From NCBI GenBank assembly GCA_963698075.1, contig OY969116.1, positions 313,010 to 377,009 of the forward strand: a DNA stretch of 64,000 nucleotides, given 5' to 3'. The translations under genes were made by a program, and so were the position numbers. This DNA is from an uncultured Candidatus Berkelbacteria bacterium (GTDB taxonomy: Bacteria > Patescibacteriota > UBA1384 > UBA12157 > JAENIV01). The notes beneath the pieces are model-generated. The model saw only the letters and a program-made list of their open reading frames with translations, searched no databases and had not been told where the DNA came from. Each line of letters starts with the position of its first letter. Positions within the stretch are counted from its first letter, which is position 1. This document shows, in pieces, positions 3,912 to 61,820 of the stretch.

Positions 3912-5144
3912 TTAGGATGTGGCGATGCTAGCGTGCTCTTCGATACTAGCGTAAGGAAGGAAGGGCTCGACCCACTCCTCGACAGGTCTGGCGTCGAAGA
4001 TATTCCGGCGCAATAGCCGGTTGCCAACGGTTCCGATTGCCTGCTCCATCATCCAGACGGACTGGCGAGTGGCTTCCTCGATCTGCTGGTCAGTCACATA
4101 CTGGTTGATGTAATGGAGCCAGTCGTCCCCGTGGTCTCGCATTGCTGATTCCTTGGCCGCGTAGATCCCCTGTGCCCGGAAGACCGCGCGCTGGATCTCT
4201 TTATTCGCGGGAATCAGGTAATTGATATCACCTCGAGCGTAGGGAACTGCCAGGCGATTTTCATCGACCGTACAGGCGAAATCGCCGAAGCGTCCAGCGG
4301 CTTCCTCGACTTTGCCATCAATGTTGTCGATGCCCGCAGCCCGACAGAACGCGCGTTGATGATGGGCATTGCGCACTAACGTGGCCTGCCAGGCGGTGAA
4401 GGACAGATCGTCGAGATGCATGAAGCGCTGAGCTTCCTCGGGGGTGATGTCCTTATCGCCGGCCGGATCGTACTTTGCGTTGAAACTGATCGCCGGTTCA
4501 TCCATGAGGAATCCAGGGTTCGGAATCCGGTCGAGGTTGGCGTCGGCGAATACCTGCCGCATCTTGGGATCTTCCATGATTCCAGGAATCGCCCGAATCT
4601 CGTCGAGCCCGACGACCGTCTCGTCATAGGTCGCCAACTGCTCATAGCGATTCCCCATGCCCGCGGCGTTGAAGATCCGTTTGAATGTTGAGCTGCCGAG
4701 CGGGAAGCCGAACCGGAAGATGCATTCGGCGTCCGAGACGAAGGTCGTTATATGGCCGGCTGCGATGAGGCGGTGGTAGATGGCGCGGCTCTCGACAGTG
4801 AGAACGTCGCTGAGGATGTATGGGGTGGCCGCCAACCGCATAACCACCTTGTTGCTCTTCTCTCCTCGGTCAAGGAGAGTCCCGACGGTAACGACCTGGT
4901 CGCCATGATCCAGCATGCCGACGTAGGTGCTCCGGAACCCGGCCTTAGCCGCTTCTTCCCAGTAGTATGCCGCGGTCATCGCGAGGACATATCTCTTGCC
5001 ACGTATCTCCTGTGATGGAATCTTCTTCTTGAGATCGGCGACCGAGAAGCGCCCGCTGACGATCCACGGTCCGATGCCCAGGTACCAAAGCCCGGGCGCC
5101 ACGAATTGCGGCCAGGTTGGATCCAAGTCCTTGACGCTACCCAT
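3912..5144 (-). CDS. ATP-dependent purine-pathway-type ligase (PurP/FAICAR-synthetase-like or PurC-like); GC-rich, assignment uncertain
   Basis: 410 aa; segments YVLAMTAAYYWEEAAKAGFRSTYV and GMGNRYEQLATYDE resemble archaeal PurP (TIATLGSH..KGAKxEGFxTV; GARGGRGYFIA). Partial resemblance to SAICAR synthetase also noted. GC about 58% against the low-GC background. Confidence 0.3.
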   Translation of the reverse strand: MGSVKDLDPTWPQFVAPGLWYLGIGPWIVSGRFSVADLKKKIPSQEIRGKRYVLAMTAAYYWEEAAKAGFRSTYVGMLDHGDQVVTVGTLLDRGEKSNKVVMRLAATPYILSDVLTVESRAIYHRLIAAGHITTFVSDAECIFRFGFPLGSSTFKRIFNAAGMGNRYEQLATYDETVVGLDEIRAIPGIMEDPKMRQVFADANLDRIPNPGFLMDEPAISFNAKYDPAGDKDITPEEAQRFMHLDDLSFTAWQATLVRNAHHQRAFCRAAGIDNIDGKVEEAAGRFGDFACTVDENRLAVPYARGDINYLIPANKEIQRAVFRAQGIYAAKESAMRDHGDDWLHYINQYVTDQQIEEATRQSVWMMEQAIGTVGNRLLRRNIFDARPVEEWVEPFLPYASIEEHASIATS

Positions 5145-8412: not shown

Positions 8413-8964
8413 TTAATCCCCCAAAGGCAAAGTCTTTATTAAAGTATGTTTCGGCCCATCGCTTAAGAGTTCAGATTCGAATAGGATAATTTCTTTTACC
8501 GGAAAACAAGGAAAATCTTTTTTGGATATCTTATTGACAATATTTTCAAGATTTCTGGATTTTTTTATTCTGGCAAAAGTGACATGTGGCTTGAATTTGC
8601 GTGAATCATCAAACTGGATATCAGCCGCCTTCAAAATTTTACTGATTTTTTCTTGAAAATGAATAATTTCTTCATTTTCCTTAAAGCCCACCCAAAGATT
8701 ATGAGGTTTTTCTAAATTCGGAAACCCGCCTAAATTCAAACAAGTTAGCTTTAGTTTTTCAGATCTAATTTTTCCCAAAGACTCCACAATTTTTGGAATC
8801 AAAGTATAGTCTGTATCACCTAAAAAAACCAAAGTCAAATGGATATTTTCCGGTTTAACCCATTTGGCGTCAACACCAGCTGATTTCAATTCTTCCTGAA
8901 TCACCCTGATTTTTTGTTGAATTTCGTCGGGGATTTCAATCGCCACGAACAATCTCTTTTTCAT
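8413..8964 (-). CDS. thpR: RNA 2',3'-cyclic phosphodiesterase (2H phosphoesterase, LigT/ThpR)
   Basis: Two HxT/S motifs: HLTLVFLG and HVTFAR. Confidence 0.7.
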   Translation of the reverse strand: MKKRLFVAIEIPDEIQQKIRVIQEELKSAGVDAKWVKPENIHLTLVFLGDTDYTLIPKIVESLGKIRSEKLKLTCLNLGGFPNLEKPHNLWVGFKENEEIIHFQEKISKILKAADIQFDDSRKFKPHVTFARIKKSRNLENIVNKISKKDFPCFPVKEIILFESELLSDGPKHTLIKTLPLGD

Positions 8965-9017
8965 GGCTTCATTTTACCATATCTGTTATAATGAATAAAG
9001 AAATCACAAATAAATTG

Positions 9018-9168
9018 GGAGCGAAGCCAAGTATCCTCAAAAGTGGCTATCGCAGGCCAAAAAGCATGGTTCCGAGGTAATCCGAGGATTTTTGGCCGAG
9101 ATCGCAGGCACCGATTGCGCGCTGGAGCAATCGTAGTGCCGGCATCTTTTGACGGATACTGGCGAGCG
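9018..9168. mobile_element. MITE-like element copy 1 (intergenic), imperfect terminal inverted repeats
   Basis: Ends GAGCGAAGCCAAGTATCCTCAAAAGT ... ACTTTTGACGGATACTGGCGAGCGA are shared with the copy at 16621-16749. Core is GC-rich with internal direct repeats (atcgcaggc x2, tccgagg x2). Confidence 0.5.
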
Positions 9169-9173
9169 ATATT

Positions 9174-10058
9174 ATGAAAGAATGCTACCTCTATCAAAAA
9201 TCAGGCGATTACACCGTTTGTGCTACTTGCAACCACCGCTGTCGGATTGCGCCTTATAAACGCGGTATTTGTGGAGTAAGAGAGAATCAGCAAGGAAAAT
9301 TACATCTTTTAGTCTATGGTCGAATTATTGCTGAAAATATTGACCCAATCGAAAAAAAGCCCTTGTATCATTTTATGCCCGGAACTTCCTCTCTTTCTAT
9401 CGCCACTGTTGGCTGTAATTTTCGTTGTCTTTGGTGCCAAAACTGGGATATCGCCCAATGCACTAAAGACAATGCCGACCGCACCGAAATTACCAGTAAA
9501 ATGGGCATTGAAATGGAACCGGAACAAATAGTTGAAGACGCCAAAAAATACGGCTGTCCCTCAATTTCTTATACTTATACTGAACCGACAATTTTTCTCG
9601 AATTTGCCTTAGATACCATGAAACTGGCAAAAAAAGCGGGTCTAAAAAATGTTTGGGTCTCCAACGGCTATATGACAACGGAGACACTTGATTTAATCAC
9701 GCCATATCTGGATGCGATTAATGTAGATTTAAAGGGATTTAGCGAAGAAAATTATTTAAAATATTCCGGGGCCAAGTTACAGCCGGTCCTAGATAATATC
9801 CGCGAGATCTATAAACGCAAGATCCATCTTGAAGTCACGACTTTGATCGTCCCAGGGGTTAATGATGACGAAAAACAACTAAATGATATCGCCCAATTTC
9901 TCGCCTCGATATCAAAAAACATTCCCTGGCATATTTCCCGGTTTTTCCCAGCCTACAAAATGCCCGATACACCGGTAACGCCCATTGAGACCTTAGAACT
10001 GGCCGAAAAACTTGGCAAAAAAGCTGGTTTAAAGTATATTCATTTAGGAAATATTTAA
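9174..10058 (+). CDS. AmmeMemoRadiSam system radical SAM enzyme
   Basis: CNFRCLWC CxxxCxxC motif; PFL-activase-like architecture; immediately followed by Memo-like and AMMECR1 genes. Confidence 0.7.
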   Translation: MKECYLYQKSGDYTVCATCNHRCRIAPYKRGICGVRENQQGKLHLLVYGRIIAENIDPIEKKPLYHFMPGTSSLSIATVGCNFRCLWCQNWDIAQCTKDNADRTEITSKMGIEMEPEQIVEDAKKYGCPSISYTYTEPTIFLEFALDTMKLAKKAGLKNVWVSNGYMTTETLDLITPYLDAINVDLKGFSEENYLKYSGAKLQPVLDNIREIYKRKIHLEVTTLIVPGVNDDEKQLNDIAQFLASISKNIPWHISRFFPAYKMPDTPVTPIETLELAEKLGKKAGLKYIHLGNI

Positions 10059-10066
10059 GGAATAAA

Positions 10067-10885
10067 ATGTCTCTTAATTTTGCTGCCATCACCCCTCATC
10101 CCCCAATAATTATCCCCGGAATCGGTTCTCCGAAAGATTTAGAAAAAGTTGCCTTAACCGTCCAGGCGATGCGTAAATTAGCCAATTCCTTCCGCGAAGC
10201 CGAAATTGAAACATTACTGGTTATATCCCCCCATACTTTAGTCTATCCCGACCGTTTCAATATCGGCGGCATGAAAAAACTTTTTGGCACTTTTGCCCCT
10301 TTCGGGGCACCCGATGTAATGCTGGAATTTCCGAACGACATTGACCTTGCCCGAGAAATTGACGCTCAGGCTAATCAACAAGACATTAAAACCCTACTCT
10401 ATGACAATAGCGGCGAATTTTTTGAACTTGACCATGGAATTATGGTGCCTTTGTATTATCTGACTATGCAACAGGAATCCGCTCTGAAGGTCATCCCTCT
10501 CGCCTATTCCAATTTAGACCGCGCCAAACATTTTGCTTTTGGCCAGATTATTGGCGAGGTTATCAAGAAAAACCCGACGAGGATTGGCATCGTTGCCTCC
10601 GGCGATCTTTCCCATCGTCTAATCCAAGGCGCACCAGGTGGATACTCCGAGGCCGGTAAAAAATTCGATCAGAAATTGGTCGACGATTTAAAAGCTGGCA
10701 ATATTCAAGAAGTCATGTTCTATGACGAAGAATTTGTTGATGATGCTGGCGAATGCGGCTACCGCTCAATCTTGATTTTGTTGGGTATTTTAGATGGACT
10801 TTCTCTTAAGCCCGAGATAGTATCTTATGAAGGTCCTTTTGGCGTCGGTTATTTAGTCGCCAATTACCCACTCAAAAATGACTAA
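10067..10885 (+). CDS. AmmeMemoRadiSam system protein B (Memo-like / class III extradiol dioxygenase fold)
   Basis: TPHPPIIIPG, ISPHT, DHGIMVPL, IVASGDLSHRL parallel Memo-family APHAGY..GPSHH..EHSIEM..SSDFCH positions. Confidence 0.6.
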   Translation: MSLNFAAITPHPPIIIPGIGSPKDLEKVALTVQAMRKLANSFREAEIETLLVISPHTLVYPDRFNIGGMKKLFGTFAPFGAPDVMLEFPNDIDLAREIDAQANQQDIKTLLYDNSGEFFELDHGIMVPLYYLTMQQESALKVIPLAYSNLDRAKHFAFGQIIGEVIKKNPTRIGIVASGDLSHRLIQGAPGGYSEAGKKFDQKLVDDLKAGNIQEVMFYDEEFVDDAGECGYRSILILLGILDGLSLKPEIVSYEGPFGVGYLVANYPLKND

Positions 10886-11408
10886 AATGAACGCTTGTGT
10901 TGATTTGGCTCAAAAAACAATCAAAGACTATTTAATAGATGGTCGAATTTTTGACGCCGATTTGGCCCCAGAGACTTTAAGAAAAAATCGCGCTGGTTGT
11001 TTCGTCTCTTTGCACTTAAAAGATAATAAGGAATTACGCGGATGTATTGGCACGATTTTGCCAACCTGCAAAAATCTCGCTGGTGAAATTATTAACAATG
11101 CTATTTCTGCCTGTCGGGATCCGAGATTTACGCCGGTAACTAAAGAAGAATTGGATAACTTGGATATTTCGGTCGATGTTTTAAGCGATCCAGAACCGAT
11201 TTCTTCGGTTAAATCCCTTGAACCAAAAAAATATGGCGTGATTGTCAAAGCCAAAGACGGCCGTACCGGATTGCTCCTTCCTGATTTAGAAGGAATAGAT
11301 GACGCCGCCTATCAAGTGGCCATTGCTAAACAGAAGGCTGGGATATTACCAGACGAATCGGTATATCTTTACCGTTTTACTGTCGAGAGACATAAGGAAA
11401 TAACTTAA
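10878..11408 (+). CDS. AmmeMemoRadiSam system protein A (AMMECR1 domain)
   Basis: AGCFVSLH...LRGCIGT hallmark of AMMECR1. Confidence 0.75.
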   Translation: MTKMNACVDLAQKTIKDYLIDGRIFDADLAPETLRKNRAGCFVSLHLKDNKELRGCIGTILPTCKNLAGEIINNAISACRDPRFTPVTKEELDNLDISVDVLSDPEPISSVKSLEPKKYGVIVKAKDGRTGLLLPDLEGIDDAAYQVAIAKQKAGILPDESVYLYRFTVERHKEIT

Positions 11409-11423: not shown

Positions 11424-12389
11424 GTGGGAGAAAAACCTTCGTTTAGCCCTGAAGAAAATTATGCTCAATTTAAAGAAACTCAAAGAAAAAAACAAGAACT
11501 AGCTTTGAAAAAAGGTCAATTCGATGCTAGTAATTGGCTGGTTAAACTTTTTCACAAAAGATCATTTGCTAAAGAGTACCAACAAATAGCATCTAAGTCG
11601 GCTCAATTAGAAAAAGAAAGTGAAAGGATGATTGCGGATGCAAAATTTCATATGAGGCAAATACAACAAGAAGCACAGATCGAAGAAATTAAAAGAAATC
11701 CCCAAGTATTAAAAACTTTGGAAGATGATTATTCACGCCTAGACGACAGTGAAAGAGACCGTTTTTTTAATCAAAGAATTCCTATTGCGGTAGCCTTTGC
11801 TCGAGGATATGTTTTGCGAGGAAAAGATTTTTCCAGCGCAGGACTCTTACCAAGTGAGAAGACTAATGGTCATATTGAATTCACTAAGCCATGGAGACCG
11901 GAAGATTTTGAATTAGGTAGATATTCCGGTCCAGAAAGACAACCTGACCAGAACGTCGTCAAGTTGGACGAAAGTGGTAAACTTAGTACGTCAGCATTAA
12001 GAAATGCTCTACTCACATTATTTGAGCCAACGCAAGAACTAATTGCAAAAGACGAAGCTGCAGCCTCAATTAGTCCAACACTATGGAACAGAGAGCTTTT
12101 AAAAATTGTAAATTCTTTGTCTGAATTAAATCGATTTTTAACCTATCTTTCACCTCATTTAGTTGAGACTAGTATAAATTTAGAAGAAGTTTACGAAGGC
12201 AGTAGGCATCTACCAAAGGCGGATCTAGGGAGAATGAATGTTTTACCTTCTAGGTCTTATCAGAACGCAGCGCTTGGTGAATTCTATTATGTTAACACAG
12301 TTTCGGGTATATATACGCTTTATCCGCTTCTAATCGAAAAAATTAAAGAATCCCAAGAATCTAATCCTGACGTATTCTCAAACTCTTAG
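11424..12389 (+). CDS. Hypothetical protein (GTG start), coiled-coil N-terminus
   Basis: 321-aa ORF with no motif I can recognise; starts gtgggagaaaaacc. Confidence 0.3.
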   Translation: MGEKPSFSPEENYAQFKETQRKKQELALKKGQFDASNWLVKLFHKRSFAKEYQQIASKSAQLEKESERMIADAKFHMRQIQQEAQIEEIKRNPQVLKTLEDDYSRLDDSERDRFFNQRIPIAVAFARGYVLRGKDFSSAGLLPSEKTNGHIEFTKPWRPEDFELGRYSGPERQPDQNVVKLDESGKLSTSALRNALLTLFEPTQELIAKDEAAASISPTLWNRELLKIVNSLSELNRFLTYLSPHLVETSINLEEVYEGSRHLPKADLGRMNVLPSRSYQNAALGEFYYVNTVSGIYTLYPLLIEKIKESQESNPDVFSNS

Positions 12390-12398
12390 TATGTAACT

Positions 12399-12755
12399 AT
12401 GCAAATAGCTCAAATTGTTCCCAAAGTGAGAACTCAAGATGAGGGTGTTTTTGATTATGCGATACCACCGGCATTATTGCCAATGATAAAAGTTGGTCTC
12501 CTAACCGAAATCCCCTTTCACGGTCGAAAAATTGAAGGGATAATAGTTAAATTAAAATCCAAATCGCATGCGGTACAAATTTCAAATCTCAAATCTATTT
12601 CAAATATTATCGATCCAGTCCCTGCTGTTGATGATACCCATATCAAACTTGCCCAATGGATGACGAATTATTATTTGGAGCCGTTAGGAAAAACTCTCTT
12701 TGAATTTATCGTCCCGCCGGCCAAAAGAACCATTAAAAAACTGGCCCATGAATAA
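12399..12755 (+). CDS. priA: Primosomal protein N' N-terminal (3'-DNA-binding) domain, as a separate ORF
   Basis: 118 aa; stop TAA overlaps ATG of the next ORF (ATGAATAA at 12748-12755); PriA-type N-terminus. Confidence 0.55.
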   Translation: MQIAQIVPKVRTQDEGVFDYAIPPALLPMIKVGLLTEIPFHGRKIEGIIVKLKSKSHAVQISNLKSISNIIDPVPAVDDTHIKLAQWMTNYYLEPLGKTLFEFIVPPAKRTIKKLAHE

Positions 12756-14190
12756 AAAATATTTAATTATTGGCGACTTTCAAACGAGATTAAAGTTCTA
12801 TTTGGCGGCTATCCAAAAAACGCTGACTAAAAATCATTCAATAATTATTTTAGTCCCTGATTTATCGCTGATTTCATATTTTACTCGGTATTTCAAAAAT
12901 CCTTATTCAATTCTGCACGCCGGCCTAAAAAAAACCGAGCGTTGGCTCGAATGGAACCGTATTCGCGAAGGAAAAGTAAAAATTATCATTGGTTCACAAT
13001 CAGCTCTTTTTGCGCCGGTAAAAAATTTGGGCTTAATTATCATTGATCAAGAAGAAAATGAAACCTATAAAAACGACCGATCACCAAGATTCCACGCTGT
13101 CCGGGTGGCCGAAGAATTATCTCGCCTCGCCAGGACCAATTTAGTTCTGGGAAGCATCTTGCCGCGTGTCGAAACCTATCATCAAGCGATTAAAGGCAAA
13201 TATCAAATCCTCAAAAAATCGGCCTTAGCTTCCAAGAATATTACCATTGTCGATATGAATTCGGAAAAATATGTTATTTCAAATACCTTGGAAAAAGAAA
13301 TTGAAAATACATTAATTCAAAAACAAAAAATATTATTAGTTCTCAATCGCAAAGGCGAAGGGACAAAATTTTCTTGTACCGATTGCGGTTGGATTGCTCT
13401 TTGTGAAAAATGCGGCCTGCCCTTGATTCCTCAAAGAGCGGAAAATGTTTGTTATCGCTGTGAGAAATCATCTCCCCCGCCTTTATCCTGTCCAAAATGC
13501 CGCGGCGTTCATCTGAAACCAATGGGTTTGGGCACGGCCCGCTTAAAAAAATTTGTAACCGATTTATTCCCGAAGGCAAAAATCATCCAGGTCGAAAAGG
13601 AAAGCGACGGCCGTCTTGTTAGATACAACTGGGATATTGCCATCACGACAATTTACGGGCTCAAATTCAGCTGGCCGAAAATTGGTTTGGTTGGCATAAT
13701 CGACGCTGACCAAGGTTTGAATTTTCCTGATTTTTCGAGCCCTCAAAAAACTTTCCAAAATTTATATAAATTTTTACGAATAGGCGAGAGGGGAATAGTC
13801 CAAACTCATTTGCCAGAAAACTATTGTTTACGGGCTCTGGCAGGCTTAAACTATGAAAGATTTTTCTTAGATGAAATCACCCAAAGACGAAAATTTGCCT
13901 TTCCGCCGTTTAATCGCCTTGTTCGCCTTTTATTCAAAAATGCTGATGAAGAAAAAGCCAAAAAAGAAACAGTGAGAATATACCAATCACTAATCACCAA
14001 TCACTTTCCACTAACCACTATCTCCAGACCACATCCCGCTTTCATTTCCAAAGAACGCGGGAAATATCGCTATCAGATTGTAATAAAAATCTCAAGCCTA
14101 AGATCTAAGTTCTCAAATCAGTTAAAAGATACTTTACGAACTCTTCCCAAGGGCTGGATTATTGACGTCGATCCCGTGAATTTGCTATGA
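12748..14190 (+). CDS. priA: PriA helicase-core-like protein with degenerate motifs plus Cys4 zinc module
   Basis: LIIIDQEENETYKNDRSPRFHAVRVA aligns to E. coli PriA motif II region (IVIDEEHDSSYKQ..RYHARD) with DEEH changed to DQEE. No Walker A GKT near the start. CTDCGW..CEKCG..CYRCE..CPKCRG zinc-binding region retained. Confidence 0.65.
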   Translation: MNKKYLIIGDFQTRLKFYLAAIQKTLTKNHSIIILVPDLSLISYFTRYFKNPYSILHAGLKKTERWLEWNRIREGKVKIIIGSQSALFAPVKNLGLIIIDQEENETYKNDRSPRFHAVRVAEELSRLARTNLVLGSILPRVETYHQAIKGKYQILKKSALASKNITIVDMNSEKYVISNTLEKEIENTLIQKQKILLVLNRKGEGTKFSCTDCGWIALCEKCGLPLIPQRAENVCYRCEKSSPPPLSCPKCRGVHLKPMGLGTARLKKFVTDLFPKAKIIQVEKESDGRLVRYNWDIAITTIYGLKFSWPKIGLVGIIDADQGLNFPDFSSPQKTFQNLYKFLRIGERGIVQTHLPENYCLRALAGLNYERFFLDEITQRRKFAFPPFNRLVRLLFKNADEEKAKKETVRIYQSLITNHFPLTTISRPHPAFISKERGKYRYQIVIKISSLRSKFSNQLKDTLRTLPKGWIIDVDPVNLL

Positions 14191-14756: not shown

Positions 14757-15926
14757 ATGAGAAAATTAAAGATCGGCATTTTTACCGAATGTTATCATCC
14801 GGTACTCAATGGCGTGGTGGTTTCGATTGAAACTTTTCGTCAAGCCCTTGAAAAACGTGGGTTTGAGTTTTTCATTTTCACCACTCAATGTCCGGGTTAT
14901 CACGAAAAAAATGCCCGCGTCAGGCGATTTAACTCAATGATCCCCTTCCCGTCCAAAGGCGGACGTTATCCGATTGCCTGGCCGCAAATCGCCAGATTGC
15001 AAGCCCCACGCATCGCGCCATCAAATCTTGACCTCATTCACAGCCAGCATCTTTTGGGTATTGGTCATTTAGGTCTAAAAGTTGGCAGAATCCTAAAAAT
15101 TCCGACCATCCTCACTTACCACACCCTCTTGGCTGAATACACCCATTACGCGCCCGGAATAGGGGCAATTTTAAAATGGTATCTAATCCATGCCAGCCGA
15201 GAAATTTCCAACCAATACGATCGAATTGTCACCCCTTCACCATCGATGAAAAGGGTTTTACGTTCCTATGGCGTCAGACGTCCAATTGAACCCATCCCTA
15301 CCGGCGTTAATATTGCTGATTTTCAAAATCATTATTCAAAAGAGGAAATCAGAAAAAAATGGCAAATACCCGAGCACCAAAAAATCCTTCTTTACGTCAG
15401 CCGAATCGCCAAAGAAAAAAATCTTGACTTTCTCTTTGAATCTATTGAACGAATAGCTACCAAGCGTGATGATTTTCATCTTTTGATGGTTGGTGGCGGA
15501 CCAGAGCTTAAATACTATCAAGCAAAAATCCACGAGTGGCATCTGAAACCATTCGTCACTTTTACTGGAATGCAACCCAAAAAAGAAGCTAACCGTTTTT
15601 ATGGCGCGGCGGATATCTTTGTCTTCCCCTCAATCACCGAAACCCAAGGAATTGTGGTCACCGAAGCCATGGCTGCCGGTGTGCCGGCAGTGGCTGTCAA
15701 TCAAATGGGACCAAGCGATATTATCCAAGATGGGATTGACGGCTTTCTTGTGCCCTTGAAAACGGATGAATTTACTGCTAAAATAGAACTTCTGCTTGAC
15801 GATGATAACTTAAGAACCAGGATGGGCCGCGAAGCTCGCCAGAACGCTCGTAAGTTCTCAGTCGAAGCTTGCGCCCAGAAAATGGAAAAAATATATGAAA
15901 GAACCATCGATCATCACCGTTCCTAA
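14757..15926 (+). CDS. GT4 family glycosyltransferase
   Basis: ETQGIVVTEAMAAGVPAVAVN (EX7E-type motif) and GT-B layout; SD aaggatggg 5 nt before ATG 14757. Confidence 0.7.
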   Translation: MRKLKIGIFTECYHPVLNGVVVSIETFRQALEKRGFEFFIFTTQCPGYHEKNARVRRFNSMIPFPSKGGRYPIAWPQIARLQAPRIAPSNLDLIHSQHLLGIGHLGLKVGRILKIPTILTYHTLLAEYTHYAPGIGAILKWYLIHASREISNQYDRIVTPSPSMKRVLRSYGVRRPIEPIPTGVNIADFQNHYSKEEIRKKWQIPEHQKILLYVSRIAKEKNLDFLFESIERIATKRDDFHLLMVGGGPELKYYQAKIHEWHLKPFVTFTGMQPKKEANRFYGAADIFVFPSITETQGIVVTEAMAAGVPAVAVNQMGPSDIIQDGIDGFLVPLKTDEFTAKIELLLDDDNLRTRMGREARQNARKFSVEACAQKMEKIYERTIDHHRS

Positions 15927-17433
15927 TGAGAAACTTTCCGAGGCGACAAGTAAAGTCACCTCTTTTGTGCAAGATTCTAATGAGCTTAAAAAACAAATCC
16001 GAAATATGGTGGCAATCCTGCGCCAAGAAGGCGGTATTGGTCTGGCTGCTAACCAATTGGGTTATGATAATCAAGTCCTAGCTATTGAATTTAAGGAATC
16101 TGATCAAAAGTCTTCTAAAAAGTCCTCGAAAAAAAATGCGGAAAAGACGGAAATCCCTTTGACAATTTTTGTAAATCCCGAAATTGTCGAATACGGGAAA
16201 ACAATTGAATGCTTTGAAGAGGGATGTCTTTCGGTGCCTAAAATCGAACTTGAAGTTGAGCGGCCGACCCAAATTAAAATTAAATATCAAAACGAAAAAG
16301 GGAAAAAAATCAAAGCCGCCCCCAAAGGTTTGCTCGCCCGCATCCTTCAGCATGAAATTGATCATCTGGGTGGCATCATCTTTACCGAACGTGTCAGAGA
16401 GCAGTTTTTTCAAAAATACCCAGAGTTGAAAAAACTAAAAATCGCATTTTTCGGTAGCGGAGAGTTTGGGGCTATCATTTTAGAAGGTTTAATCTTACTT
16501 GGGCTGAATCTCGATATCTATACGGAAAAATCAAAACCGGCCGGCCGCAGCCAAGTAACTCGCGCGACGCCCGTGGCAGAAGTGGCTAAAAAGTTTGGAA
16601 AAGATTATTTTGAAGTAGAAGCGAGCCAAGTATCCTCAAAAGTAAATCGCGGAGGCGAGCCGCACGGACAAGGGCGAGCCGAGCGTTTAGACCCGATTTC
16701 CTCGCAGGGGAAATCGAGGTCGGTACTTTTGACGGATGCTGGCGAGCGACCATTTGATTCTCTCGTCTGTGTTGATTTTGGTCAAAAAATCCCCGAATCG
16801 ATATTAAAACAAGCCAAAATTGCCGCCCTCAATATTCATCCCTCGCTTTTACCAAAATATATCGGCCCGACACCAATTCAAACGGCGATACTTAATGGCG
16901 ATAAGAAAACTGGCGTGTCAATTATTCAAATGACCGATAAAATTGATCAAGGCCCGCTTTATTCCCAAATTGAAACGGAAATTCTCGAAAACGATACCAC
17001 ACCCCTTCTCCACGACCGCCTCGCCACTTTGGGTCTAAAATTATTAATCAAAACCTTACCCAAAATCGTCCGTGGCGAAATCGAAACTGTCAGTCAGGAT
17101 TTATCCAAAACGATAAGGACGCGCAAATTCACTAAAGCCAATGGTGAAATTGACTGGCGAAAATCCCCCAAAAAAATTGATGCCAAAATCCGCGCCTTTT
17201 CCCCTTGGCCGGGTTCGTATACCCGCCTGCCAGCGCCTGAAGCCGCAGGCAATGGCGGGCAGGCTTTCGTCGATAATAAACGCCTAATTATCCACAAAGC
17301 TCATATTAAAAAAGACAAATTAGTTCTCGACATAGTTCAGAGTGAGGGCAAAAAACCAATGAAATTTTCTGAATTTTTACGCGGCTTTCACGGTCCAAAA
17401 CCGGAGTGGTTTAGGAAAGTATTATTGACATAA
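15895..17433 (+). CDS. fmt: Peptide deformylase - methionyl-tRNA formyltransferase fusion (single 512-aa ORF)
   Basis: N-terminal GIGLAANQLG, EGCLSVP, QHEIDHLGG (PDF motifs). C-terminal IAFFGSGEFG ... NIHPSLLPKYIGPTPIQ ... WRK..FSPWPG (Fmt). No stop or start between the two parts. Overlaps the upstream GT4 gene by 32 nt. Confidence 0.75.
   Translation: MKEPSIITVPNEKLSEATSKVTSFVQDSNELKKQIRNMVAILRQEGGIGLAANQLGYDNQVLAIEFKESDQKSSKKSSKKNAEKTEIPLTIFVNPEIVEYGKTIECFEEGCLSVPKIELEVERPTQIKIKYQNEKGKKIKAAPKGLLARILQHEIDHLGGIIFTERVREQFFQKYPELKKLKIAFFGSGEFGAIILEGLILLGLNLDIYTEKSKPAGRSQVTRATPVAEVAKKFGKDYFEVEASQVSSKVNRGGEPHGQGRAERLDPISSQGKSRSVLLTDAGERPFDSLVCVDFGQKIPESILKQAKIAALNIHPSLLPKYIGPTPIQTAILNGDKKTGVSIIQMTDKIDQGPLYSQIETEILENDTTPLLHDRLATLGLKLLIKTLPKIVRGEIETVSQDLSKTIRTRKFTKANGEIDWRKSPKKIDAKIRAFSPWPGSYTRLPAPEAAGNGGQAFVDNKRLIIHKAHIKKDKLVLDIVQSEGKKPMKFSEFLRGFHGPKPEWFRKVLLT
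16621..16749. mobile_element. MITE-like element copy 2, 129 bp inserted in-frame within fmt
   Basis: GCGAGCCAAGTATCCTCAAAAGT ... ACTTTTGACGGATGCTGGCGAGCGA. Adds 43 codons (ASQVSSKVNRGGEPHGQGRAERLDPISSQGKSRSVLLTDAGER) between DYFEVE and PFDSLVCVDFG, the position where E. coli Fmt has a short linker. Confidence 0.5.
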
Positions 17434-18532: not shown

Positions 18533-19213
18533 ATGAATCGCATGATTTTCCATATAATCACAACCCAACCTTCAATTTATGACTCGTTTCTAAAAACGGG
18601 TCTGGTTGCGCGTGGAATTGATAAAAAGATTATCGATATCAAGATTCAAAATTTATATAAATTTGGTCTTGGTGTTCACAAATCGATTGATGACACCCCT
18701 TACGGCGGTGGCGCCGGGATGATCATTCGCGTCGACGTTATGGATAAGGTCCTGTCGACGCTCAAACGAAAAACGAAAAACGAAAAACGAAAAACTATAT
18801 TATTGACTCCACAGGGAAAGAAGCTCAATCAAAAAATAGCCAAAAGATTAGCTAAAGAAAAAGAGTTAATTTTAATTTCCGGCCGGTTTGAGGGTTATGA
18901 TGAACGAATCCGCCGGCTGGCGGATGAGGAAATTTCTATTGGTGATTATATCTTAACTTCCGGCGATCTACCGGCCATGGTTTTAATTGAGGCGATCTCT
19001 CGCCATGTTTCCGGTTTTATCGAAAAAAAAGAATCGCTCAAATCCGAATCTTTCGAAATGAATCTTTTAGAATATCCCCAATACACGAGACCATTGGAAT
19101 TTAAAGATAAAAGAGTCCCGGAAATTCTTCTTTCCGGTGATCATGCCAAGATTAATAGGTGGCGCGAGATCGAATCTTTGAAACGTACTCATAAAAGACG
19201 ACCTGATTTATAA
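18533..19213 (+). CDS. trmD: tRNA (guanine37-N1)-methyltransferase
   Basis: DDTPYGGGAGM, ISGRFEGYDERI, SIGDYILTSGDLPAM (SPOUT knot) motifs. Confidence 0.8.
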   Translation: MNRMIFHIITTQPSIYDSFLKTGLVARGIDKKIIDIKIQNLYKFGLGVHKSIDDTPYGGGAGMIIRVDVMDKVLSTLKRKTKNEKRKTILLTPQGKKLNQKIAKRLAKEKELILISGRFEGYDERIRRLADEEISIGDYILTSGDLPAMVLIEAISRHVSGFIEKKESLKSESFEMNLLEYPQYTRPLEFKDKRVPEILLSGDHAKINRWREIESLKRTHKRRPDL

Positions 19214-20697: not shown

Positions 20698-21780
20698 ATG
20701 AAATATTTTATCTTTACACTCGGCTGCCAAATGAATGTGAGCGATTCAGAACGGATCGCCACCATTTTAGAAAAGCGGGGATACTCTCCGAACGCTGAGA
20801 AAGTGGCCGATTTAATTATCGTCAACGCTTGTTCGGTCCGCCAAAAGGCGGTTGACCGAATTTGGGGCAAAGTCAAAATTTGGCAACTGCACCATAAAAA
20901 AATTTTATTAACTGGCTGTGTTTTGCCTGCCGACCGCAAAAAATTTGCCGAAAAGGGGATTGGTTACTTAAACTTTTATGATGATAATTTTTTTGATATT
21001 GTCCCTAAAAACCTATCCCCTATAACCTATATACCGATCATGACTGGCTGTGATAATTTTTGCTCTTATTGTGCCGTCCCCTACACTCGCGGCCGCGAAA
21101 AATCCCGACCGGTAAAAGATATCTTGGACGATGTCAAACGTGCTCTCAAAGACAAATCTAAGGAAATATTATTGTTGGGCCAAAATGTCAATTCTTATGG
21201 AAAACTAAAAAGTAAAAACTCAAAAGTTAAAACTTCAACTAAAAAGTTAAAAGATAATAAAGAATTTATAAAACTATTAAAATCCATTGATAATCTGCCT
21301 GGAAATTTTAAGTTCAACTTTATTTCATCTAATCCCCATGATATGGACGATGAACTGATTAAAACTTTTGCTAAATTAAAAAAATGGCCCCGAGAACTTC
21401 ATCTGCCGCTCCAATCCGGTGATGACGAAATTCTACACAAAATGAATCGCAAATATACTAGCGCTCAATATCTTAAACTAATTGAAAATTTAAAATTTTC
21501 GCCGAAGGCAGGCATGCAAATTGAAAATTTATCTTTAACCACCGATATCATCGTCGGTTTTCCTGGTGAGACCAAAAAACAATTCGAAAATACTCTAAAA
21601 CTTTGTAAAAAAGTCAAGTTCGATAAAGCCTACATTGCCCAGTATTCCCCTCGCCCCGGCACCGCGGCAGCCGAATTTAGAGATGATGTTTTATCAACCG
21701 AGAAAAAAAGAAGATGGGAATTACTCGATAGCTTAATCAACAAAAAAACGACGGCTTGCCCCGTTAATGACGCACTGTGA
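20698..21780 (+). CDS. MiaB/RimO-family radical SAM methylthiotransferase (short form)
   Basis: N-terminal MTTase domain FTLGCQMN; radical SAM CDNFCSYCAVP. Confidence 0.7.
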   Translation: MKYFIFTLGCQMNVSDSERIATILEKRGYSPNAEKVADLIIVNACSVRQKAVDRIWGKVKIWQLHHKKILLTGCVLPADRKKFAEKGIGYLNFYDDNFFDIVPKNLSPITYIPIMTGCDNFCSYCAVPYTRGREKSRPVKDILDDVKRALKDKSKEILLLGQNVNSYGKLKSKNSKVKTSTKKLKDNKEFIKLLKSIDNLPGNFKFNFISSNPHDMDDELIKTFAKLKKWPRELHLPLQSGDDEILHKMNRKYTSAQYLKLIENLKFSPKAGMQIENLSLTTDIIVGFPGETKKQFENTLKLCKKVKFDKAYIAQYSPRPGTAAAEFRDDVLSTEKKRRWELLDSLINKKTTACPVNDAL

Positions 21781-37053: not shown

Positions 37054-37093
37054 ATCTCTATTGTAGTTTAGAAATTAGAAATTAGAAATTTCT

Positions 37094-60743: not shown

Positions 60744-61820
60744 TTATCCGACGCTTCCCAGATCGGCGTTGCGCAAGTCTTCGGCGGCATGCTCAGGTGT
60801 GCGGGGATTGATGTAGGCGCCCGAGCCCTTCTCGAGGGCCGCCAGAATTGCTTCGGTGATTGGTTCGATCTGACAATGCCAATGATAGGTCTCTAGCTCA
60901 GTGTCGGTGGGAGGGGCAGTGTGGAAGTAGAGGTTGTAGTCAGGGTCGTTGAGTGTTACCCGAATCCTCTTCAGCGTCTCCTGTAGCAACAAGGCGAATT
61001 CCGTCAGAAGGTCGGCTCCTTGAGGATGGGTCGAGATGTTGGCAAAGTAGCTCTGGTGATACCGCGGTCCCACAATAACCTGATAAGGCGTCCTTGAGGT
61101 GAAGGGACACCAAGCCATGAAGTTTTCGGTGACATTGATCAACCGTTCCTTGGCAAGCAGTTCCCAATCTCTCTCCTCACAGTAGAAACAGGAGCGATTC
61201 AGGTCATAATAGTGCCGGGCGCCTGCCAACTCATGGTAGATCCGCGCTGGCAATGTCGGTAGCGCCACCAACTGGCTGTGGGGATGGGGTTGGCTGGCGC
61301 CAGCGAGCGGTCCATAATTCTTGAAGAGAAAGATGCAGTGGATGTTCCGTTTACTTCCGATTGCCAAGGTCATCTCCCGCCACATGTGCAAGACTTCGCG
61401 GAAGTAGAAGGGGTCGAGAGTCTCAAGAGCAACATCGTGTCGAGGTGATTCGATGATGACATAGTGGAAGCCGAAAGCCGGCAATACCGTAAACGGTCCA
61501 CGCTTCTCCACCACCAGAATCTCTGAAGGAATCGAGGCGTTCACTGCCGGCGCTAGGTTCGGTACGACTCTCACCCACCAGCCAGGATTGTCTGCCTTCG
61601 TCTCTTTAGCACGATAGGAACTTACTTCCTTCGGGGTCTGGCTCTCCCGACCCTCTTCGAAAGAACACTCTTCGCCGCTGACGAGGCGCGGGTTGAACCT
61701 GGACCAATCGCGCTCTTTCTGCCGCCGTAACTTCTCCAACGGCTTCTCCCGGTCTGAACCGATGATCACCAGCGTCCCCGAAATCGGGTTCCTTCTTAGC
61801 TCTTCCACACGACCTGGCAT
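60744..61820 (-). CDS. galT: Galactose-1-phosphate uridylyltransferase-like (GalT/HIT superfamily) protein, GC-rich
   Basis: SQPHPHSQL matches the GalT HPH active-site motif. CFYCE..C/H zinc-site-like residues. ATG 61820 with aggagg SD. The track ORF's upstream 71 residues read through tRNA-His and are artifactual. Confidence 0.55.
   Translation of the reverse strand: MPGRVEELRRNPISGTLVIIGSDREKPLEKLRRQKERDWSRFNPRLVSGEECSFEEGRESQTPKEVSSYRAKETKADNPGWWVRVVPNLAPAVNASIPSEILVVEKRGPFTVLPAFGFHYVIIESPRHDVALETLDPFYFREVLHMWREMTLAIGSKRNIHCIFLFKNYGPLAGASQPHPHSQLVALPTLPARIYHELAGARHYYDLNRSCFYCEERDWELLAKERLINVTENFMAWCPFTSRTPYQVIVGPRYHQSYFANISTHPQGADLLTEFALLLQETLKRIRVTLNDPDYNLYFHTAPPTDTELETYHWHCQIEPITEAILAALEKGSGAYINPRTPEHAAEDLRNADLGSVG

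Follow-up and report, generated by a model that had tools for sequence, protein, structure and literature searches.

Small repeats of the Correia/NEMIS, ERIC and BOX type are co-transcribed with their neighbours and can place long hairpins in mRNA. CPR/Patescibacteria have small, streamlined genomes that are generally regarded as poor in mobile elements. The closest described counterparts of the element reported here are the Rickettsia palindromic elements (RPEs), details of which were reportedly set out by Ogata and colleagues in 2000. RPEs are ~150-bp palindromic repeats that are carried in frame in genes (PMC10969869). Our literature search returned no paper on MITE-, REP- or RPE-type repeats in CPR/Patescibacteria.

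Here we describe a family of structured repeats from Berkelbacteria, two copies of which lie in the 64-kb stretch of DNA that was analysed as a whole (hereafter the window). Like RPEs, the element is palindromic, measures about 100-150 bp, has no ORF of its own, and sits either between genes or in frame within genes of a small, reduced genome (PMC10969869). RPEs are read through as an extra peptide at tolerated positions, as is predicted for the element in fmt, and neither has a known transposase (PMC10969869). We claim analogy rather than membership. The phylum differs, CPR here as against Alphaproteobacteria for RPEs, and the Berkelbacteria element is set apart by a three-way junction, tandem G.A steps and invariant loops, by fmt as its sole coding host gene so far, and by resident copies that are unusually well conserved.

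The element also resembles the Correia/NEMIS, ERIC and BOX MITEs in its small size, inverted termini, dispersal and insertion polymorphism (PMC10969869 and general background). Unlike these, it shows no target-site duplication, and no cognate insertion sequence was found among the window ORFs or in public scans. Its internal hairpins covary and its fold is strand-specific, whereas TIR-based DDE transposition needs neither. With REP/REPIN sequences it shares the character of a structured repeat whose fold matters on one strand, and RAYT-like genes occur in the clade; however, the element is 4-5 times longer than REPs, has no GTAG motif and does not flank the RAYT-like genes. Integron attC sites likewise fold as single strands in a strand-specific way and have conserved ends, extrahelical bases and a central part that varies, but on inspection the element has no RYYYAAC/GTTRRRY core sites, it comes with no cassette array or nearby integrase, and one copy lies inside coding sequence.

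Identification of the element family

Copy 1 is a GC-rich element of 155 bases at 9017-9171 on the + strand. It belongs to the long subtype and is matched at full length by our covariance model, R1, with 109.3 bits (E = 1e-25, model positions 1-137), while its minus strand scores just 13 bits. GC content is 0.45-0.51 at copy 1 against about 0.33-0.39 in its surroundings. The element lies between a thpR/LigT gene (8413-8964, minus strand; PF02834) and a divergent radical SAM gene (9174-10058, +; PF04055) of an AmmeMemoRadiSam cluster, in which Pfam also identifies LigB/Memo (10067-10885, +) and AMMECR1 (10878-11408, +). These calls agree with the location given in the preliminary description, which was made from the sequence of the window. 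A 78-aa minus-strand ORF (8961-9197), already taken there as spurious, does overlap copy 1. It has no Pfam match and is most likely spurious, existing because the GC-rich element has few stops in several frames.

Two exact words link copy 1 to a second site. The 19-mer 5' terminus GCCAAGTATCCTCAAAAGT is found at 9026-9044 and 16625-16643 and nowhere else in the 64 kb (0.04 expected); the 24-mer 3' terminus CTTTTGACGGATRCTGGCGAGCGA likewise has just two occurrences, at 9146-9169 and 16726-16749 (0.00 expected). The 12-mer quoted in the preliminary description is not significant by itself, as two matches were reached in 18 of 100 shuffles. Copy 2, a member of the short subtype, spans 16616-16751 (+) within a def-fmt fusion ORF and scores 153.8 bits with R1. 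Together, the shared exact termini and the covariance model matches bear out the claim that copy 1 belongs to a dispersed element family. With filters off, R1 finds just these two copies in 64 kb; a weak match of 18 bits at 61205-61312 was rejected, being GalT coding sequence with a fold z-score of -0.4.

R1 was built from eight copies and recovers all eight at 109-166 bits. In all, we identified 13 non-redundant full-length copies at 8 genomic sites, namely two in the window, two in L018 (L018a and L018b), and one each in L010, L012, L013, L020, L047, L049, L052, L058 and L059. Every copy found so far is in a Berkelbacteria-like (CPR/Patescibacteria) contig. Genome and metagenome scans with the 5' terminus gave access to L010, a Candidatus Berkelbacteria MAG, and to L012, L013, L018 and L020, which are sediment and groundwater contigs. 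In these public scans, chance accounts for 10 of 11 genome matches and 4 of 9 metagenome matches, in which the remainder of the element is missing. The remaining contigs (L047, L049, L052, L058 and L059) were reached through Def-Fmt homologues and spurious ORFs. Two family-specific patterns found no copy in viral contigs, where 16-mer matches were rejected as chance, the 3' motif being missing. Protein searches with the translated element were also set aside: a word-index search returned one spurious ORF but not the Fmt of the window itself, and an exhaustive representative search returned two spurious ORFs, giving two extra loci and no further host protein.

Copies range from 135 to 155 nt and have no ORF of their own. 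The short subtype, of about 136 nt, includes window copy 2 and L018a, and the long subtype, of about 152-155 nt with an extra tip CGAGGUAAUCCGAG, includes window copy 1 and L018b; both subtypes therefore coexist within the same genomes. Judged by the searched literature and Rfam, the family is apparently undescribed so far.

Some intergenic copies at non-orthologous sites (L013 1580-1613, L018 5819-5851, L020 7562-7594 on the minus strand, and L058 ~955-976) share an AT-rich 5' extension, AAACAAATCCCAATGYTTAAATGRCTRAATR. In L013, L018a, L020 and L058 the element is preceded at 10-12 nt by a TTAAATG -10-like box, and L058 has (ATGCAACA)x3 upstream as well. Some subfamilies may be longer on the 5' side, or carry their own promoter.

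Two further features of the surrounding genes were observed. A 321-aa ORF between AMMECR1 and PriA (11424-12389, +) has no Pfam or NCBIfam match and is missing at the same position in L049, L054, L056 and L062. PriA itself is present as two overlapping + strand ORFs, 12399-12755 with the 3'BD domain and 12700-14190 with the rest. It is also split in L053, L054, L056 and L062 and intact (615-626 aa) in L049 and L052, which could reflect a conserved frameshift or a genuine split.

A conserved three-way junction on the + strand

As the preliminary description had proposed, we predicted the RNA fold. On the + strand, both window copies form a three-way junction consisting of a long closing stem, P1, and two hairpins, with -63 kcal/mol (z = -4.2) for copy 1 and -64 kcal/mol (z = -6.6) for copy 2. 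P1 is built from the conserved termini. In copy 1, its 5' arm (9026-9045, +) pairs with 9143-9163 over 19 bp, according to both helix mapping from the alignment and the MFE fold, and the 3' arm (9143-9163, +) is placed by helix mapping, the MFE fold and covariation. The two arms are the terminal inverted repeats of the element, 19 bp with two single-base bulges (A9030 and C9153 in copy 1), and 11 of the 19 pairs show compensatory change across the family. Beyond P1, the MFE structure of 9017-9171 contains an outer extension, GC-GAA (9021-9025, +), in which GC 9021-9022 and GC 9166-9167 form base pairs on the far side of a G.A/A.G internal loop. The fold therefore also takes in the conserved flanks AGCGA(A)...GAGCGA, which pair outside P1. 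All copies, whatever their locus, carry the same end motif, GCGA(A)GCC...GGCGAGC.

Hairpin H1 (9046-9105, +) is formed by pairing of 9046-9063 with 9090-9105, as indicated by the fold and by inverted repeats. Its tip module, 9071-9088, reads UCC-GA-GG-UAAU-CC-GA-GGA, and is also found in the L018 copy at 9686-9837, with covariation of UCC/GGA and GUC/GAC. The two TCCGAGG repeats reported earlier are present at 9071 and 9081, and represent the two strands of this tip. Likewise, the palindromic segments noted inside copy 1 were recovered as inverted repeats. The direct repeat ATCGCAGGC is real, with copies at 9049 and 9101; the first had been placed at 9048, one base off. Hairpin H2 (9107-9140, +) pairs 9107-9120 with 9125-9140 and carries the invariant loop motif CnCGCnGG; 10 of its 14 pairs show compensatory change. 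Loop and junction nucleotides are invariant across the family. In the short subtype, the hexamer GCGAGC occurs four times, and each occurrence pairs with another as GC-GA-GC. Tandem G.A steps are a hallmark of the copy 1/copy 2 family.

In the family alignment, which was itself fitted to the model, 97.5% of cells are paired and compensatory changes occur at 29 of 44 pairs. None of 500 column shuffles matched the observed pairing and compensatory values, and sliding the partners by 1-3 columns as a control lowered pairing to 31-46%. G.U/U.G cells outnumber A.C/C.A cells by 18 to 2, and the fold therefore belongs to the + strand, as RNA or single-stranded DNA. These results alter the earlier picture of a variable core that shares only its termini with copy 2. 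That impression holds by eye only, since R1 matches the whole of copy 1 with 109 bits and the core of copy 1 is homologous to that of copy 2, with the same two hairpins, covarying.

Across the window, only tmRNA and tRNAs reach the gathering thresholds of Rfam 15. Searches of either window copy at E up to 10 gave chance-level matches of at most 16 bits, and L010, L013 and L018 gave no match at E up to 1. A bulge-helix-bulge, attC core sites and SRP, 6S, RNase P or Y RNA were considered; none fits the sequence, and Rfam gives no support. A small ORF in H1, with GGAGG and an AUG 8 nt later, was also rejected, because the AUG is ACG in the fmt copies.

Insertion polymorphism and genomic context

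In L049, which is syntenic with the window, the spacer between thpR and the radical SAM gene is 31 nt long, keeps a TATAAT box and has no element; the spacer is likewise short in L056. The site of L018b is unoccupied in the syntenic L020, which is 85% identical, but the alignment of the two spacers is not clean. No copy occurs in a combined 55 kb from three close relatives, L053, L054 and L056. The copies in the radical SAM leader, in fmt and in L059 are in the sense orientation, the last one lying between lexA and a Holliday-junction-type endonuclease gene, downstream of lexA. Those in L012, L013, L018a and L018b are antisense within operons. The occurrence of copies in coding sequence, in antisense operon spacers and downstream of lexA excludes the possibility, raised in the preliminary description, of a shared operator upstream of many genes.

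Its comparison with MITEs fits the data in that the element is small, ORF-free, bounded by inverted termini, and present or absent at orthologous sites. At 12 copies tested, no locus-specific target-site duplication was found. Apart from GCGAGC/GAGCGA, a constant part of the element that is missing from empty sites, no direct repeat flanks the copies. Upstream of the copies, there is no conserved target, including no conserved 4-5-nt 5' target.

Position of copy 1 relative to the radical SAM promoter

Upstream of copy 1 lies an extended -10-like box, TGTTATAAT (8983-8991, +), recognised by reading the sequence and by comparison with L049 (1464-1494), L056 and L062; a consensus promoter scan did not call it, as its -35 is weak. 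Relatives without the element keep TATAAT, equally far from the start of thpR. In L049, the TATAAT that aligns with TGTTATAAT is followed by an ATG 9 nt later, and from sequence the radical SAM gene looks leaderless, or nearly so, in relatives. In the window, about 176 nt separate GAATA from the ATG, made up of 21 AT-rich nt, the element and TATT.

Copy 1 would thus have inserted downstream of the -10 box and ahead of the radical SAM start codon, so that a formerly near-leaderless gene would now have a structured leader of ~180 nt. The ATG lies 4-5 nt past the element end, with no GGAGG-type ribosome-binding site between, and the 3' arm of P1 stops 10 nt before the AUG. The gene that follows the L059 copy, unlike the radical SAM gene of the window, has a GGAGG-type ribosome-binding site. 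The pre-existing promoter would now transcribe through copy 1, and given the proximity of P1 to the AUG and the missing GGAGG site, translation or stability of the radical SAM mRNA is probably altered.

The preliminary description had suggested that the element itself could supply a promoter or terminator for this gene. Neither is supported: the radical SAM promoter precedes the element and is also present in relatives that lack it, and copy 1 contains no terminator-like site. In this region, the consensus scan called a single promoter-like site, TTGATA-17-TAATAT, which is on the minus strand and runs from 9197 to 9169 at the 3' junction of the element; promoter-like matches in the region are no commoner than in shuffles. 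The -10 box of this site is formed where the element meets the radical SAM start codon, and use of this site would mean that transcription of thpR runs through the element in antisense. An outward-facing promoter starting from TTGACG in the 3' arm was rejected, because the spacings do not fit.

In-frame carriage within fmt

The ORF that contains copy 2 (15895-17433) encodes a fusion of Def and Fmt, as is typical of Berkelbacteria. Copy 2 keeps the reading frame and contains no stops; it encodes residues 243-285 of the protein, with the peptide ASQVSSKVNRGGE...LLTDAGER. AlphaFold2 assigns residues 244-273 a pLDDT below 50, and the segment is predicted to be a disordered loop; the last ten element-encoded residues are modelled as a strand plus helix joining the Rossmann fold.

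An alignment of 24 Def-Fmt homologues revealed the same insert in P0002 (window), P0003 (L010) and P0006, and divergent inserts at the same loop in P0008 (L049) and P0034 (L052), the latter using a different reading frame of the element. P0016 retains only the last 10 codons (SVLLTDVGER). Most homologues have no insert and show an 11-residue native loop instead. Across five divergent fmt genes and three element lengths, all copies are in frame and stop-free, and in the L049 and L052 copies every helix is kept via compensatory changes. By analogy, in-frame carriage in fmt matches known RPE behaviour and argues against an intron.

A separate insert was observed in the Fmt C-terminal domain. At 17224-17265, a 42-nt in-frame GC-rich hairpin, CCGCCTGCC...GGCGGGCAGG (-28.6 kcal/mol), encodes RLPAPEAAGNGGQA with pLDDT below 50. 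It also occurs in P0004, is longer in P0019 and is missing from most homologues.

Conservation of resident copies and reuse of insertion sites

The fmt copies are more similar to each other than the genes that carry them. Between the window and L047, the element is 92% identical and its flanks, measured over 240-300 nt of fmt, are 64-66% identical; between the window and L010, the values are 95% and 72-75%. L049 has the closest flanks to the window (75-78%) yet a more divergent element (81%). Element divergence does not follow host divergence in fmt, and element-bearing genes are scattered over a neighbour-joining Def-Fmt tree. Such conservation would not be expected of decaying selfish DNA. 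This pattern could arise if resident copies are under selection, if other copies convert them, or if elements home repeatedly to the same loop.

We also observed a second GC-rich structured family, termed B, at L062 ~4650-4788 (+) and L056 ~8700-8815 (+, inside fmt). Its members have the blocks GCCGAGGGGA, GGTCGAG, CGAGTAGGTKGGATAGGG and GGCGACCCGAGGCGAT in common, and its closing helix consists of 3-bp GC steps with tandem G.A between them. Family B occupies the same two sites as the window copies: in L062 it lies in the radical SAM leader, and in L056 it sits in frame within the fmt loop (protein P0005). Family B is not detected by R1, has no Rfam match and does not occur in the window; it looks unrelated to the copy 1/copy 2 family.

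Heptanucleotide tandem arrays were noted in the window (18764-18795, 21201-21245 and 37068-37090), in L054 (10675-10708) and in L018 (5796-5825). Some lie inside coding sequence, in trmD, in a MiaB-like gene and in the fmt loop of L054. In L054, both recurrent sites are empty and carry AATTTCT arrays, and similar arrays adjoin several intergenic element copies, which hints at AATTTCT arrays as a candidate landing pad or recombination hotspot.

Search for a putative mobilising enzyme

None of the 67 window ORFs encodes a transposase, integrase or reverse transcriptase, and the partner transposase with matching ends envisaged in the preliminary description was not found among them. Nor is there a longer element with the same termini: all true matches of the 5' terminus in public genome and metagenome scans are short elements.

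RAYT-like Y1 transposase genes occur on the minus strand of L049 (2902-3552), L054 (3249-3914) and L056 (2382-3044). They match PF01797, and score 61-74 bits with NF047646, below its curated cut-off of 80. Their position just downstream of the radical SAM gene is conserved in relatives; the window has no Y1 gene at this position and tblastn gave no match. In L049, L054 and L056, hairpins of the form TAACCATTTT..CCCAC..GTGGG..AAAATGGTTAG flank the Y1 gene on both sides. These hairpins bear no relation to the element and show covariation of their own. With an empty tblastn result in the window and unrelated flanking hairpins, a link between the Y1/RAYT genes and the element was rejected.

Discussion

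We consider that the family probably represents a non-autonomous structured mobile repeat, RPE- or MITE-like in character. Taking family membership, fold, covariation, strand bias, insertion polymorphism and in-frame carriage as observed, we infer mobility itself. The fold would be the feature that a trans-acting enzyme recognises on a single-stranded intermediate, either RNA or ssDNA. Its copies occupy intergenic spacers in either orientation and, in fmt, would be read through as a disordered loop. A point against mobility is that only two copies are present in 64 kb.

The alternative that best withstands the data, although clearly less probable, is a host-functional three-way-junction RNA module, acting as a protein-binding or processing/stability element and kept by selection, including in the fmt mRNA. 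It would account for fmt copies that are 90-95% identical beside flanking codons at 64-75%, for the retention of all helices by compensation in the divergent L049 and L052 copies, for the invariant loop and junction nucleotides, and for the one-strand wobble bias. The TTAAATG-like -10 box located 10-12 nt upstream in L013, L018a, L020 and L058 also favours it, although -10-like hexamers are common in AT-rich spacers. However, the copies occupy unrelated contexts (leader, coding sequence, operon spacers, downstream of lexA), the structured strand is antisense to the surrounding genes at four sites, close relatives have no copy in 55 kb and lack it at both window sites, and neither a terminator nor an Rfam family was found.

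A broader proposal, which we regard as tentative, is that the element and family B form a new class of tandem G.A-rich three-way junctions that is actively maintained across Berkelbacteria, either as a host-protein-bound RNA module or via re-homing or gene conversion. The latter route could involve specific landing sites, possibly the AATTTCT arrays, a single-stranded intermediate and a putative enzyme. Either form of maintenance would explain why fmt copies stayed 90-95% identical while codons drifted to 64-75%.

Movement as single-stranded DNA by a Y1 (HUH) REP-associated tyrosine transposase, which would make this a REP/REPIN-type element, appears improbable. A strand-specific fold that is independent of transcription direction, with G.T-type wobbles and bulges, is what such a system would lead one to see, and relatives carry a RAYT-like Y1 gene beside the radical SAM gene. 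Yet the Y1 genes are flanked by hairpins of an unrelated kind, the element occurs in the window without a Y1 gene, and genomes that do have Y1 carry one or zero copies in 20 kb. Moreover, there is no conserved GTAG motif or conserved 4-5-nt 5' target, and the NCBIfam score falls under the curated cut-off of 80.

Still more doubtful is an intron-like intervening sequence, removed by self-splicing or by a host nuclease and ligase. Occupation of the same fmt site in scattered lineages, as with homing introns, would fit this idea, as would the conserved RNA structure and a nucleotide conservation above that of the exon-like flanks. However, the five fmt copies, in three lengths and two element frames, are all open, which splicing would not require, although ascertainment via intact ORFs weakens this point. 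Furthermore, most copies are intergenic, where splicing would be purposeless, no ribozyme or intron model matches, and P0016 keeps the last 10 element codons as protein, in the stretch that AlphaFold2 models as strand plus helix. A shared regulatory DNA site (operator, promoter or terminator) is the least credible reading: copy 1 does lie directly upstream of a gene and the minus-strand TTGATA-17-TAATAT spans the 3' junction, but the idea is already contradicted by the distribution of copies, which also lie in coding sequence and antisense operon spacers, by a length of 135-155 nt with three covarying helices, unlike an operator, by promoter-like matches at shuffle frequency with no terminator-like site, and by a + strand promoter that is older than the element.

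The family also bears on annotation. Its copies yield spurious ORFs (8961-9197; proteins P0001, P0122 and P0123) and inflate protein lengths. If confirmed, the unusual conservation of resident copies and the fact that two families use the same two sites would suggest a mechanism of targeting or maintenance that has so far gone unrecognised. In Def-Fmt, an essential translation enzyme, the element is predicted to add about 43 residues without destroying the enzyme. The family shows that small structured repeats colonise CPR/Patescibacteria genomes and reshape 5' leaders.
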